A DNA stretch of 63,156 bases, the filler included, from Fonticula-like sp. SCN 57-25 (taxonomy: Eukaryota), in the NCBI GenBank assembly GCA_001724245.1. It is 12 parts of 12 records of this genome, joined end to end, with 100 filler letters (N's around TTAATTAATTAA, not from the genome) between each part and the next. Parts side by side here need not be neighbours in the genome. Positions count along the whole stretch, not along the records: positions 52,847 to 57,951 come from MEDX01000626.1; 11 more parts are not named here. One strand, given 5' to 3'. Shown here one piece after another: positions 5,140 to 58,051 of the stretch. How positions within the stretch are numbered: position 1 is the stretch's first letter; each line of letters starts with the position of its first letter. The notes under the pieces were generated by a model. It had not been told where the DNA came from, did not search any database, and was given only the letters and a program-made list of their open reading frames with translations. Position numbers and translations under genes: made by a program.

Positions 5140-5239
5140 NNNNNNNNNNNNNNNNNNNNNNNNNNNNNNNNNNNNNNNNNNNNTTAATTAATTAANNNNN
5201 NNNNNNNNNNNNNNNNNNNNNNNNNNNNNNNNNNNNNNN
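5140..5239. other. Artificial contig spacer (44N + TTAATTAATTAA + 44N). Identical spacers at 10374, 16200, 21436, 26670, 31899, 37115, 42325, 47536, 52747 and 57952
   Basis: The same 100-nt structure occurs 11 times. The 12-mer puts stops in all six frames, and genes are cut at every spacer. Confidence 0.99.
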
Positions 5240-47635: not shown

Positions 47636-48682
47636 AATGCTCGCCTCGTCCACCTCGTCGATCAGCGCGAGCAGCTGCTTGTGCGTCTCATCCTCGTACT
47701 TTACAAAAATGTCGGCGAGCTTGAGCTCGTCAAAGAGCGCCTTTACGACCTTTTCGCTCTCGTCGTCCTTGCGGCCGTAGTGCTGCTCGAGCACGCGGCG
47801 CTGCTCTGGCGTGACAATGTCGAGCGCCTTGTTGATCAGCCACGAGCTAATGGCATGGCGTCAGCATCAGAAAGGAATCAAATGAGATCTGTGCGCGTAC
47901 CACTTGTTGTCCTTGATGTCGGTGCCGATCTTGCCGATCACGGCGGGATCGCCAAAGCAATCGAGGTAGTCATCCTGGATCTGAAAGTACTCGCCCATCA
48001 CGAGGAGGATGCGGCGCGCGGTCGCAAAGCTCGGGGCATCCGCCTTGTGGCCCGCCATGAGGAGCGCGAGCGCCACGGGGAGGTAGAAAGAGTAGTACGC
48101 CGTCTTGAACTCGACGATGTAGCGGTACTTTGTCATCGAGAAGCGCGCGAGATCGACATTGTCCTCGGGCGCCGTGATCAGATCCAACAGCTGGCCGAGC
48201 TCGGTCTGGTACGTCACCTCGTGCATCAAGTCGAGGAGATCGACGTAGTAGGGCTCCTTGCCAAAGTGCTTCTTGAGGAAGCGGTAGATGCACGACTCGA
48301 GCAGAAAGGCATCGTTGATGGCGACCATGCCGACCTCGGGCATCTTGTACCAGCAGGGGGCGCCGCGGCGCGTCACAGAGCCGTCCATAATGTCGTCTGA
48401 CACGAGGAAAAACGCCTGAAGCCACTCGACGCACCAGCCGAGCACGTACGTGCGCTCGAGCTCGATCTTTGTCAGCTCGCGCTCGCCGACGAGCGAGCGG
48501 TACGTGTCGATCACCGAGAGGCCGCGGTTCATCTTGCCGCCCTGCACATTGTGCTCGAGGCTGCGGCTGAACCAGTCAAACGCATTCTCAGGAAGGCGGA
48601 AGGCGGGCGTCTTGAGGTCAGACAGAATGTCAGCCTTGAGCTGATCGAAAAAGGCGACAAACGCCTCGCGCTCGGCCGCCAT
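47636..48682 (-). CDS. FDPS: Farnesyl diphosphate synthase (3'-truncated)
   Basis: [48 protein letters not shown] and FQIQDDYLD. Confidence 0.95.
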
Positions 48683-48867
48683 CCCTCGCAAACGCTGGCG
48701 TGATTGTGCTAAAGTAAGGCCATCTTTCGCGTGCGTGTGATTGGCTGAAATATTGCTTCGCTCGCGTGTGATTGGTTGATAGGAATCATGTCATGCACTG
48801 ATTGGTCAGCACGTCGCGCCACCCCCTGCACACACACTGCTGCTGTACCTCTGCCGTTGCTCGGGCC
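48683..48867. promoter_or_regulatory. Bidirectional FDPS/EBP promoter with three phased inverted CCAAT boxes
   Basis: ATTGG at 48740, 48771 and 48801. The first two lie in a direct repeat GCGTGTGATTGG(C/T)TGA. Confidence 0.7.
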
Positions 48868-53655: not shown

Positions 53656-55057
53656 TCATTCCGAAAATAAAGGCCTGATCGCCTCCGCCAGCACACCCGC
53701 CACGTGCTCATACTCGCTGTCCGTCAAGTGCAGGTAGTCATAAAACGCATCCGTCGGCAACACAGCATCAATGGCCACGTGATCAGCCTTCCATGGATCG
53801 ACAAACATTGCGCGATGGCGGCCCTTTAGCGCCGCCGCCAGCAGCGCGTTCACTTGAAGGTGCTTTCGGCGGGGGGCGCAGCGCTGCTCGCCACGTGGCG
53901 GAAGAGCAATGATGGCCACGTGGGTGTCTTCCCAGAGGAGGTGGAGTGTGTCGAGAAGGGAAAGAATGCCGTCGGCGACTTCGCCGCTCGTGTGGTCGCT
54001 GTTGTTGGTGCCGATCAAAAGAGCGACAACTTCGGGAGGACAGCGCTAAAAGTGGGTAAGCAAACTGCAAACTGATATGGCCACGTGGGAAATGCGATAG
54101 ACATAGAGAGCACACTATGCCCATACTATATCGCACAAGCTAATGTATGTGGCAAACTGCAAACCGACTATAGTTCAACCCACCTTTCCTTCCCGCCACT
54201 ATGCGTACCGCGCATGCAACGGCCTCCCTCAGACGAAAGTTTAGAAACTGCACTTGGTCCCCTCCTATCCCCAAGTTTGCAGTTTGCTCGCTTGTCAGGC
54301 CGAGGGCGCCGATGAGGCTCGCCCACGCGGGCGACCGCTCAAAGTGCTGCACGAGGCTGTCGCCCGCAAACACAAACCGAAGCGGCGGCTTCTCCCGCTG
54401 CTCGGCGCCGCCGCTCAACGGGCCGTGGTGCTTGAGCGACATGGTCGTGAGCGCGACCGAGTTTGTGAGCGTCATCGAGACGCCCGGCGGGATCCCCTTG
54501 TAAGTGTCCACCATCACCTCGTTGATGGGCGTGCCCGACATGCCCATCACACAGCGCATCTGGCGGCGATGGATGCTCATCCAGCGAGAGTCGCCGTGCG
54601 TGTCGACGAGGGAAGCCATCACAGCGGCAGAGTTGACGCGCGAGAGATGCGACGGCGGGAGTTCAAGATTGGGATCGCGGCGCGATGGAGGGAGCGAGGA
54701 GACGAGAGAGGTGCGGCACCGCGATGAGGGGGAGAGATAGATGGGCGCGCCGCGGCGAAGAGAGTGAATGATGCGGTCAAGAGGTTTGGCAGTCGCTGGC
54801 GCGGGATCGAGGCGAGAGTCGCCGCCGATGACGCACAGGGCGACGGTTAAGCACTTGTCGTCGGCATGCCACGACAGGCTCGCGAAAGGGATCTTTGCAT
54901 CAAAAAAGCGCCCAAACGACTCTAGTATCAGCGTGAGCACACCGTCCTCTGCACTAACGTCGACCTGCGCCACAAAGCCATTGGTGCAGCGCGCGACGCT
55001 GCCCTCGGACGCATCCCAGCGCACGGCATCGACCGCGCCGAGCATTGCTGTCGTCAT
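53656..55057 (-). CDS. PAF-acetylhydrolase IB-like SGNH hydrolase with N-terminal extension, 2 exons
   Basis: D.HGDSRWMSIH, FAGDSLVQ, NLGIGGD, LIGTNN, PPRG and FYDYLHL (intact S-D-H triad); phase-0 intron about 54207-54046. Confidence 0.85.
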
Positions 55058-55213
55058 CCGTCAGTCATCCGTCAACAAGAACAATGACTCCCCATTCCCA
55101 TACACGGTTAATTTATCCATTTATGGCTAAATTCTTTTTTAAAAGGAAATTGACCCATGTTATTGGCCAATCGCATCGCAGTCGGAAGGTGCTTTGTGAT
55201 GGTGGCGCTAAAC

Positions 55214-57209
55214 ATGGCAGGGATCGCCGCCGCCGCCGCGGGGCCGCTCCTCGCCCTTGTCCTGCCAGCGTCCGCTCAGAGTGCGCCTCCTACTCTATTG
55301 CTTTCTTTACGCACTCACACACGCATCGTCCATTTTTCTATTGTTTGAATAACAGGCGGATCGTGCTCTACCGATGCTGACTGCAACGGTCATGGTAAGT
55401 GCGTCGCTGCAGGTCAGTGCGCATGCGACGCCGGATTTCTCGACAATGCTTCGTGCTCTGCCTGCGAAAGGAGCTCGGACACGTACCCGGACTGCGCCTC
55501 GTCGGAAGAGAGTGCGCACGGAGTGTTGCGAGGGGGTTGATTCTGACACGGTTTTGAATAGGTGGCAGTCGCATGGGGTTGCTGGCCGCGCTCCTAGCCG
55601 GTGTCATCCTTCTCGTAGTGGGGCTCGCGCTCTACCGCTATTTTTACGTAAAGTGCGTTTTTTTTCTTGTTGAAGCTTTTCTCAATGTTGTTTCAGGTAC
55701 CGCGTTTCGTCAAAGACGTCCCCAAGCTACATCGACGAAGTCTCTGAATCGTACGTATTTATTGGTATTGTCGTTCAAATTCGACACCTTGTTTATTTTG
55801 GTCCTTATTGTCTTTTTTCGTATTCTTTATGTCCTTTTTCCATTGAATTTTTCGCCCTATCGCTTCCCTTCTTTTGACTAACGCGATTTAGCGATGAGAC
55901 GCCGCTGATCGACCCCTCGGCCCTCCCCTCGTCCCCCCCCTCGCCGCTCCCCGCCATCTCCCCCCCCGTCCTCGTCGTCCCGCGCTCCTTCTCCCCGCCG
56001 CTGCGCGCCTCCCCCGCCGAGCTCGAGGGCACGTGCCTCGATCTGACCGAGTCGGCGATCCGATCGCGCGCCGATCTGATGTCGCGGCTGTCGGCCAACC
56101 CCGACCTGCTCGTGAGCCGCGTGTGCCGCCGCGTCGCCGTCACCGTCATGAACGGCCACGTGGACGAGATCTTGTCGCCGGACGCGTCCGAGTCGTCTAG
56201 CGGGATCGTCGATGTGACGCTTTTGCGCAACCTGATCGGTTCACTCCTTGTCACCCATGTGGACGCTGTCCTATCAGAGGCCGGCGCCATTGCGAGTCAC
56301 GTGCGCCCGCTTAGTGCTTACGTGGCCGAAGACCAGGGGCCGCGGCCGACCATGGAGGACCGCGCGTGCGTGCACCTCTACGCGCGCGAGCTCATTGAAG
56401 ACACCCACGTGGACAACAGCCTTATTGGCGACGTCGATGGCCTCATGGACAATGGCCTCACGGGCGACACAGGTGCCAATCACACCCACGTGGACAACGA
56501 GCACGTGTCCATCTTTGGTGTCTTTGACGGCCACGGCGGCTCCTCTGTCGCCCACTACGCCGGCACGCACACCCACGTGGCCCTCTTGCGCCACCCGCAG
56601 CGCACGACAGACATTTCTGTCGCCCTCCGCGCCGCCTTTCTCGACACGAACCGCCGCCTATTCGAGGGCGCGCAACTCCGCCCACGTGGCCAATCGCCAT
56701 CCACCGCCGGCTGCACAGCCCTCTTGGTGTGCGTGACACCCCGCGAGGTCGCGACCGCGTGGGCCGGCGACAGCGAGGCCGCCATGTTCTACCGCTCCGG
56801 CCACGTGGTGCCGCTCTGCCGCCCACTTCACAAGCCGTGGGACCCGAAAGAGCGCGCCATGATTGAGCGCCGCGGCGGGACTGTTTTCGAGCGCGGCGGC
56901 GCGGCGCGCGTGTGCGGCGTGCTGGCCGTTTCCCGCGCGTTTGGCAATGCGCGCTTCAAGGACTATATCACGGCAGAGCCCGATGTCCACGTGATGCCGG
57001 TGACGGGCGATGAGGCGTTTATGGTCATTGCGTGCGACGGGCTGTGGGACGTGCTCACGCCAGAGGGGGTCGCGGCGTTCTTGAAGAGCGCCAATACGAT
57101 ATTGAGGGAGGAGGTGGCCGAGGCGCTCGTCATGTATGCGAGGTCGTTGGGGTCGACGGATAATATTACGGTTGTTGTCGTGTTTTTCAACCAGAACGGA
57201 GTGTGGTAG
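55214..57209 (+). CDS. Receptor-like PPM/PP2C phosphatase: signal peptide + laminin-type EGF + TM helix + PPM1E/F-like catalytic domain (561 aa, 5 exons)
   Basis: Exons 55214-55280, 55356-55511, 55562-55652, 55697-55750 and 55892-57209 total 1686 nt, stop-free, with four canonical phase-matched introns. PP2C motifs: MEDR, VFDGHGG, AWAGDS, HKP, LAVSRAFG, ACDGLWD and DNITV. An alternative ATG lies at 55199. Confidence 0.85.
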
Positions 57210-57951: not shown

Positions 57952-58051
57952 NNNNNNNNNNNNNNNNNNNNNNNNNNNNNNNNNNNNNNNNNNNNTTAAT
58001 TAATTAANNNNNNNNNNNNNNNNNNNNNNNNNNNNNNNNNNNNNNNNNNNN

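Follow-up and report, generated by a model that had tools for sequence, protein, structure and literature searches.

A five-exon gene of Fonticula-like sp. SCN 57-25 encodes a receptor-like relative of the PPM1E/F-type protein phosphatases

We analyzed a stretch of 63,156 nucleotides (the window) from Fonticula-like sp. SCN 57-25 (GenBank assembly GCA_001724245.1), composed of 12 parts of 12 records joined end to end. The analysis confirms that positions 55199-57209 of its plus strand, located in the part derived from MEDX01000626.1, are one real gene of five exons whose product is, as far as can be told, a previously undescribed receptor-like form among the PPM1E/F-type phosphatases. With a probability of roughly 0.8, this one gene gives rise to a type-I membrane protein in which an EGF-type module, facing the outside or a lumen, is followed by a transmembrane (TM) helix, a linker, a helical N-domain and a cytoplasmic PP2C domain of the PPM1E/F/FEM-2 lineage. 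The results establish the architecture of this protein, its catalytic motifs, its fold and the clade to which it belongs. The gene model was derived from the reading frame, from homology and from DNA contigs of a relative, by which the exon junctions are backed indirectly.

The five exons join across four GT..AG introns into a single frame of 1701 nt. The product is 566 amino acids long if translation begins at the ATG at 55199 and 561 amino acids long from the ATG at 55214; a third in-frame ATG, at 55157, lies shortly downstream of a stop codon (55151-55153). Exon 1 (55199-55280, with alternative starts at 55157 and 55214) contributes the start codon and the signal peptide, with cleavage predicted after A-S-A (55199-55276). 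Exon 2 (55356-55511) encodes the ectodomain with an eight-cysteine EGF-type module (55364-55495) and one N-x-S site, exon 3 (55562-55652) the TM helix (55576-55635) and the basic residues that follow it, and exon 4 (55697-55750) a cytoplasmic juxtamembrane segment. Exon 5 begins with a Pro-rich disordered linker (55892-56003; the first 30 residues of the exon-5 product have a pLDDT of 47-59) and continues with a helical N-domain of the PPM1E/F/FEM-2 type (56004-56297, first helix from about 56013), assigned by AlphaFold2, Foldseek and alignments. The PP2C catalytic domain (56310-57188), assigned by Pfam PF00481, invariant alignment columns and AlphaFold2, is interrupted by a disordered lineage-specific insert at about 56394-56492. 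The stop codon TAG (57207-57209) is followed by an AT-rich 3' region. Introns 1 (55281-55355, 75 nt) and 2 (55512-55561, 50 nt) both read GTGCGC..AG and lie in phase 1, while intron 3 (55653-55696, 44 nt, GTGCGT..AG) and intron 4 (55751-55891, 141 nt, GTACGT..ACTAAC..AG, G+C 0.35) lie in phase 2.

An initial annotation of this DNA had proposed that four small exons are spliced into the PP2C open reading frame (ORF) through canonical, phase-matched introns. Its coordinates, GT..AG ends and phases all check out at the level of the frame, and the peptides it quoted (signal peptide, eight-cysteine module, TM helix, basic residues and Pro-rich linker) are all present in the translation. The donor sites read GTGCG in three of the four introns and GTACG in the remaining one, and the introns have a G+C content of 0.34-0.54 as compared with 0.52-0.72 in the exons. 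In the proposed frame, each exon has a third-position G+C content of 0.65-0.84. Without splicing, the frame of exon 1 runs into a stop at 55346-55348 within intron 1, the ORF that holds exon 2 ends at about 55540 within intron 2, and retention of the 44-nt intron 3 shifts the frame. The model is further supported by the only intron in the window that could be fixed by homology, that of a farnesyl-diphosphate (FPP) synthase gene, for which a Nuclearia protein served as a guide: with about 54 nt and the form GTACGC..CTGAC..AG, it is of the same kind as the four introns described here.

DNA of the locus occurs in metagenome runs from bioreactors, wastewater and aquatic habitats, and contigs from four DNA runs (X1, X2, X9 and X12) were aligned to it, X1 being the run that covers it best. 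Run X2 contains a relative that is ∼95% identical and differs at a minimum of 25 positions, 20 exonic and 5 intronic among those listed. Among these listed exonic differences, 18 of the 20 are synonymous and 17 of the 20 fall on codon position 3. Within exons 3 and 4, five of the six listed differences are synonymous: exon 3 has two synonymous changes and one Ala-to-Thr replacement, and the three changes in exon 4 all fall on third codon positions of the proposed frame and are synonymous. Intron 3 carries a 1-nt insertion and four substitutions, and exon 5 a 9-nt in-frame insertion at 56453, inside the disordered insert. This pattern, with mostly synonymous changes in the exons and an insertion in intron 3, supports the gene model. 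No spliced joint was found in the contigs of these four runs, which are DNA only; the sole joint listed, 55244>56893 (side 20, CG..GC ends), was rejected as a repeat artefact between GC-rich stretches rather than an intron. A search of metagenome contigs for related loci, run with the single protein, brought up nothing beyond one 2292-nt contig from this organism.

By hydropathy and simple rules, the N-terminal part of the product has the predicted layout of a type-I single-pass protein, with a signal peptide, one TM helix, positive charge on the inside and the cysteine-rich part on the outside. The N-terminus is hydrophobic (Kyte-Doolittle 19-mer values of 1.6-1.9 at residues 1-8) and ends in A-S-A before the predicted cleavage site. 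A single strong hydrophobic segment follows (19-mer maximum 2.82), with Arg and Lys after it, and all eight cysteines of the first 120 residues precede this segment. The ectodomain of about 52 amino acids contains the eight cysteines at spacings of 5, 5, 5, 1, 9, 2 and 9, the first six in the EGF spacing 5, 5, 5, 1, 9, and the exon-2 peptide matches Pfam EGF_2 with 28.6 bits (cut-off 22.1, E = 1.9e-6), identifying an EGF-like domain.

The module also aligns with EGF units of related proteins: with the membrane-proximal EGF of a Fonticula alba protein (P0383; 47% identity over 30 amino acids, E = 7e-6), with a repeat of P0244 (49% identity over 41 amino acids) and with residues 128-165 of P0249 (38%, E = 2e-5). 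BLASTP comparisons with P0007 and P0242 were not significant (E = 2.5 and 0.12). The initial annotation had specified a laminin-type EGF domain, a designation that is only partly supported. Eight cysteines and a C-x2-C-x9-C motif are present, and the matching residues of P0249 overlap an EGF_laminin stretch of that protein (124-164); however, Pfam EGF_laminin (PF00053) was absent from the seven families listed for the exon-2 peptide at E ≤ 1. An AlphaFold2 model of the 51-residue exon-2 peptide alone was too poor for a fold search (pLDDT 64, pTM 0.36).

The cytoplasmic part is predicted to be an intact phosphatase. The exon-5 product matches Pfam PP2C (PF00481) at residues 199-425 with 164.6 bits (cut-off 20.3, E = 4.3e-48), a match from which the first strands are split off by the insert. 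All metal-binding and acidic motifs (R..MED, DGHGG, GDS, DGLWD and DN) are present, and the catalytic residues R151, E155, D156, D212, G213, H214, D382, D386, D423 and N424 are invariant in the alignment, except for D386, which is found in at least 90% of the rows. The PP2C domain is thus intact, as had been supposed, with all catalytic motifs in invariant or near-invariant columns. AlphaFold2, run on the exon-5 product with a 50-sequence alignment, yielded a model with a pLDDT of 87 and a pTM of 0.85, in which a disordered linker (residues 1-37) precedes a confident helical N-domain (about 38-135) and the PP2C core. The N-domain helices (41-57, 60-65, 70-88, 108-128 and 130-135) have a pLDDT of about 95, the first of them about 97, and this first helix is conserved in the relatives and in animal PPM1E/F. 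The first two catalytic motifs are separated in the model by a disordered insert of ∼33 residues. At the DNA level, this insert is flanked by two perfect 17-nt copies lying 81 nt apart (56401-56417 and 56482-56498).

A Foldseek search with the model returned 149 PDB matches at E ≤ 0.001, PP2Cs throughout among the matches listed. The C. elegans protein FEM-2 (4jnd) ranked first, with a TMq of 0.63 over 410 aligned columns, as compared with about 0.50 over about 325 columns for other PP2Cs. Since the alignment with 4jnd extends over that many more columns, the N-domain is common to the PPM1E/F/FEM-2 type. The resemblance of the ELEG.. segment to PPM1E/F, pointed out in the initial annotation, is upheld by the alignment, the tree and the match to the FEM-2 fold.

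To find relatives, a word-indexed protein search was followed by an exhaustive one (134 representatives at E ≤ 1e-30), and the best 150 representatives were examined, with their parts assigned by Pfam and hydropathy. The PP2C of the window is represented in the database only by P0001, an entry of 376 amino acids that starts at the ATG at 56079 and is 99% identical. The next matches are nine metagenomic proteins with 35-44% identity, followed by Lithocolla globosa and then by animal PPM1E/F. A hydrophobic 19-mer (Kyte-Doolittle ≥ 2.0) upstream of the PP2C domain was found in 15 of the best 150 representatives, eight of them within the best 16. At least eight relatives combine a TM segment and a downstream PP2C in one protein, and six of these also have a cysteine-rich or EGF/fn3/TIG part before the TM segment. 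The proposal that signal peptide, EGF module, TM helix and PP2C belong to one gene accordingly recurs as an arrangement in these eight.

The largest of the eight is P0241 (2126 amino acids), with a signal peptide, fn3 and EGF_laminin modules, a TM segment at 1655 and PP2C. P0244 (1834 amino acids; signal peptide, EGF repeats, TM at 1308) and P0249 (1040 amino acids; EGF repeats, TM at 539) end in PP2C-like domains. Two proteins of 641 amino acids each, P0242 (EGF, TM, PP2C) and P0006 (TIG, cysteine-rich part, TM, PP2C), are accompanied by P0007 (557 amino acids; cysteine-rich part, TM, PP2C) and P0002 (567 amino acids; TM, PP2C). The eighth is Fonticula alba H696_04053 (XP_009496200.1 and XP_009496201.1; 777 and 792 amino acids), in which a signal peptide and a cysteine-rich/EGF part are followed by a TM segment at about 121-136 and PP2C. 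The nearest clade members have ectodomains of 500-1650 amino acids composed of fn3, EGF_laminin, teneurin-type EGF and TIG modules, and the named members of the clade are nucleariid amoebae (Fonticula and Lithocolla). In P0244 and P0249 the catalytic motifs are lost, with MEN for MED, DGF.G for DGHGG and no DGLWD; the two form a pair of their own in the tree (100/100) and, by these motifs, are predicted receptor-like pseudophosphatases.

Two further observations concern these proteins. In the membrane-proximal EGF, the Fonticula isoforms P0248 and P0383 differ by 15 residues, and the shorter form lacks two of the six cysteines of this module. In P0280 (3624 amino acids; PP2C at 2692-2958), a hydrophobic segment lies at about 2249, with 63 cysteines before it; this may be another very large protein of receptor-like design that falls outside the main clade.

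The position of the window protein among PP2Cs was determined with an unrooted tree of 48 hand-picked rows and 263 columns, for which P0243 and most unnamed matches were left out; a quick tree agreed with it. All 15 receptor-like rows fall into a single clade (99/96). Together with proteins that combine Armadillo repeats, a PH domain and PP2C, and with two others, they form a group of 19 rows (99/95), which joins 11 rows of the PPM1E/F type in a group of 30 rows (100/98), apart from plant, fungal, PPM1L-named and G-alpha-fused PP2Cs. Because the separate clade adjoins the 11-row PPM1E/F group in this unrooted tree and is not nested in it, the window protein is, by its placement, a relative of PPM1E/F and not a member of the PPM1E/F clade. 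The kinship with PPM1E/F that had been suggested earlier is supported by this tree, in which both belong to the 30-row group. The nearest non-membrane neighbors of the receptor-like clade are P0245 and P0246, whose Armadillo repeats and PH domain, in combination with a PP2C of the same type, represent another route of this phosphatase to the membrane.

Several points weigh against the reading of the gene as a single receptor-like phosphatase. No RNA run containing the locus was found among the sequencing runs searched. The signal-peptide and topology calls come from hydropathy and simple rules, with the −3/−1 rule applied by eye, and the signal peptide contains no basic residue if the start is at 55199 or 55214. 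The X2 contigs do not reach exons 1 and 2, and 13 further differences lie outside those listed. The C-rich stretch 55919-56033, which encodes the Pro-rich linker, is bridged by no contig of the four runs. Finally, at about 50 amino acids the ectodomain is small for a ligand-binding receptor.

The first of these points would suit a mis-modelled gene or a model with two genes, in which exons 1-4 encode a small secreted or TM protein ending in intron 4 and the PP2C is made from the ATG at 56079 on its own mRNA. When intron 4 is retained, the frame indeed continues to a stop at about 55878-55881, and the database entry P0001 starts at this very ATG. However, P0001 is the product of a prokaryotic, intron-blind gene caller. 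The exon-5 frame is open from 55878, and its earliest in-frame ATG is that at 56079; because the conserved N-domain helix (residues 41-57) precedes this codon, the start codon has to be supplied by an exon further upstream. All four introns are phase-matched, and the window PP2C falls inside the receptor-like clade, with eight relatives that have both parts in one protein. We therefore consider two genes improbable. The collinear alignment of the spliced product with Fonticula P0383, which extends from the EGF through the TM helix and the linker into the N-domain, is in line with a single gene; the search that produced it, also used for P0244 and P0249, was run without composition correction, so that its E-values are generous.

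The unbridged stretch could also be the seam of an assembly chimera, with the EGF/TM part and the PP2C part stemming from different loci or organisms. The contigs of X1 stop at 55918 and restart at 56034, and as no independent contig spans the interval, its continuity depends on the assembly of the window itself and on the frame being open. Against a chimera, the X1 contigs simply end, without a loose end at 55918 or 56034 among those listed, and one frame is open across the whole of 55919-56033. Moreover, the EGF module finds its best pairwise match in the EGF of the receptor-like PP2C from Fonticula, and the PP2C domain groups with the clade of that same protein; since both lead to the Fonticula protein, the two halves independently indicate the same family and the same order. 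A chimera is thus very improbable, and one continuous gene remains the preferred model.

Among known proteins, the closest enzymes are animal PPM1E and PPM1F (POPX1/2, CaMKP-N/CaMKP) and C. elegans FEM-2, which share with the window protein the complete PP2C motifs, the helical N-domain and a first helix of the E-x-E-G-x-C-L type. After the Lithocolla and Fonticula receptor-like proteins, PPM1E/F proteins of molluscs, insects and corals are the best-scoring named matches. They differ in having N-T-R-R-K before MED, where the window protein has D-Q-G-P-R-P, and the insert between the first two catalytic motifs distinguishes the window protein from PPM1E/F and FEM-2. Animal PPM1E/F and FEM-2 are soluble enzymes that are not known to have a signal peptide, an ectodomain or a TM segment, and none of these was seen in the sequences retrieved. 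Fonticula H696_04053 shares the signal peptide, a cysteine-rich part with a membrane-proximal EGF, the TM segment, the N-domain, the PP2C, the clade and an insert in the same loop, but it has a larger ectodomain (about 90 amino acids, with an extra cysteine-rich module) and a loop insert of about 170 amino acids. In a BLASTP alignment covering the PP2C, the two proteins are 39% identical over 52% of the query. The Fonticula protein is uncharacterised and annotated as 'hypothetical protein' or 'PPM-type phosphatase domain-containing protein'.

In the mechanism that we propose, a cleavable signal peptide would direct one disulfide-rich EGF-type module to the outside or into a lumen, and one TM helix would place the basic residues on the cytoplasmic side, where a disordered Pro-rich linker and the helical N-domain would lead to a metal-dependent Ser/Thr phosphatase that is predicted to be catalytically competent. 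The protein would act at a membrane, most likely the plasma membrane, and presumably removes phosphate from Ser and Thr residues of membrane-proximal substrates. Animal PPM1E/F act on CaMK and PAK kinases, and by analogy the substrates may be the activation loops of kinases of the CaMK/PAK type; PPM1F is described as acting on integrin tails too (available text of PMC7604772). Binding or clustering of the ectodomain may set the activity or the reach of the enzyme, as in receptor tyrosine phosphatases. Its relatives have large ectodomains of the adhesion type, from which we infer a receptor function for the window protein.

The same gene and topology would, however, also be compatible with an EGF/TM part that merely anchors a constitutively active PP2C on the endoplasmic reticulum, the Golgi or the plasma membrane and reads no signal. 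This is a live rival because the ectodomain is a single module of ∼50 amino acids. Precedents exist: plant KAPP, mammalian PPM1L and bacterial proteins of the PstP/PrpC type are PP2Cs held to the membrane by one TM segment, KAPP and PPM1L by an N-terminal anchor with no known folded ectodomain. PstP is arranged the other way round, starting with the PP2C and ending with the outer domain. Two sequences named 'protein phosphatase 1L' fall outside the group of PPM1E/F and receptor-like proteins in the tree. In addition, a hydrophobic segment precedes the domain in seven more PP2C representatives (ranks 38-124 of the best 150), and six of the seven, with the segment within the first 22 residues and at most one cysteine before it, look like plain anchors. 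Speaking for an outer function are the long adhesion- and receptor-module ectodomains of the nearest clade members and the conservation of the EGF down to Fonticula, which argues that the outer part has been under selection. Two members also keep the ectodomain despite having lost the catalytic motifs, which would fit an outer part that is important in its own right. On this balance, we regard a plain anchor as rather unlikely and favor a receptor-like role.

Receptor protein tyrosine phosphatases (RPTPs) share only the layout, namely a type-I topology, an adhesion-type ectodomain (fn3/EGF in the family of the window protein), a cytoplasmic phosphatase and the existence of dead members. They use a cysteine-based protein tyrosine phosphatase (PTP) domain with a Cys-x5-Arg loop, whereas the window protein is a metal-dependent PPM enzyme with phosphoserine and phosphothreonine as the expected substrates, and a PTP catalytic domain was absent from the Pfam matches of any part of it. 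The window protein is therefore at most RPTP-like in its working, and not a member of the RPTPs. A wider proposal is that nucleariids possess a true family of cell-surface receptors signaling by Ser/Thr dephosphorylation, in which type-I proteins with EGF, fn3 or TIG ectodomains and PPM1E/F-type PP2Cs, dead members included, would have arisen from the ancestor of animal PPM1E/F as an independent PPM-based counterpart of RPTPs and would read cell contact or matrix. We put this forward tentatively, at somewhat less than even odds.

The surroundings of the gene are eukaryotic: other ORFs in the window match TTI1, La, SGF29, BAR-SH3, WD40, RhoGEF and actin-family proteins as well as FPP synthase. 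The 138 nt between the gene and the minus-strand ORF at 54140-55060 (55061-55198) are a putative divergent promoter region. This region contains a palindromic double CCAAT box, ATTGGCCAAT, at 55162-55171 (inverted repeat I6), which overlaps the frame from the upstream ATG at 55157. The window contains 14 copies of the 8-base palindrome CCACGTGG, a G-box/E-box core, as compared with 1.1 expected, and none of 100 shuffles attained this number. Six copies lie in exon 5 (56156-56808) and three at 53891-54088, and 10 of the 35 CACGTG sites of the window are in exon 5. Since the copies are read in differing frames and the resulting His-Val dipeptides are mostly not conserved in relatives, the cluster appears to be a signal at the DNA level, such as transcription-factor sites, and not a peptide repeat. 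The window also contains eleven pairs of 44-N runs, 12 bases apart and recurring every ∼5.2 kb (e.g., 5140-5239 and 57952-58051), which are masking-like; none lies inside the gene.

With regard to the organism, the FPP synthase (47867-48790, minus strand) has its highest identity among named matches to Nuclearia (68%), followed by chytrids and Mortierella (63-65%). The affinities of the PP2C (to Lithocolla and Fonticula) and of the FPP synthase (to Nuclearia) tentatively indicate an uncultured nucleariid-like holomycotan. The top-scoring named match of the FPP synthase is a 520-residue 'unnamed protein product' of Ilex paraguariensis with 61% identity, which may be a contaminant or a fused model in the assembly of that plant.

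Textbook receptor phosphatases are tyrosine phosphatases, while PPM-type Ser/Thr phosphatases are taught as soluble or merely anchored. No account of a eukaryotic PP2C with an ectodomain, be it called receptor-like or transmembrane, turned up in a literature search that covered subscription journals thinly and may have missed 'serine/threonine' spellings. A search for receptor-type or membrane-bound PP2Cs returned plant abscisic acid co-receptors only, and no paper combining Fonticula and PP2C was found. These results agree with the earlier statement that nothing comparable has been characterised, although the architecture is present in public databases as the unnamed 'hypothetical protein' of Fonticula alba; as far as can be told, it is present in public data yet undescribed. 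The available text of Suga et al. (2014; PMC4342544) reports that Fonticula and Nuclearia lack tyrosine kinases and receptor PTPs and have one PTP each, and contains no mention of PP2C.

The case also illustrates that intron-blind gene calls on metagenomes hide architectures of this kind, the database version of the protein being the soluble 376-residue PP2C only. A coherent receptor-like clade with a member in the sequenced and culturable Fonticula alba (H696_04053) provides an experimental handle. Nucleariid amoebae are the sister lineage of the fungi. If the proteins described here are true receptors, the animal PPM1E/F enzymes would gain a membrane-receptor relative, and a lineage next to the fungi would have built transmembrane signaling on Ser/Thr dephosphorylation.

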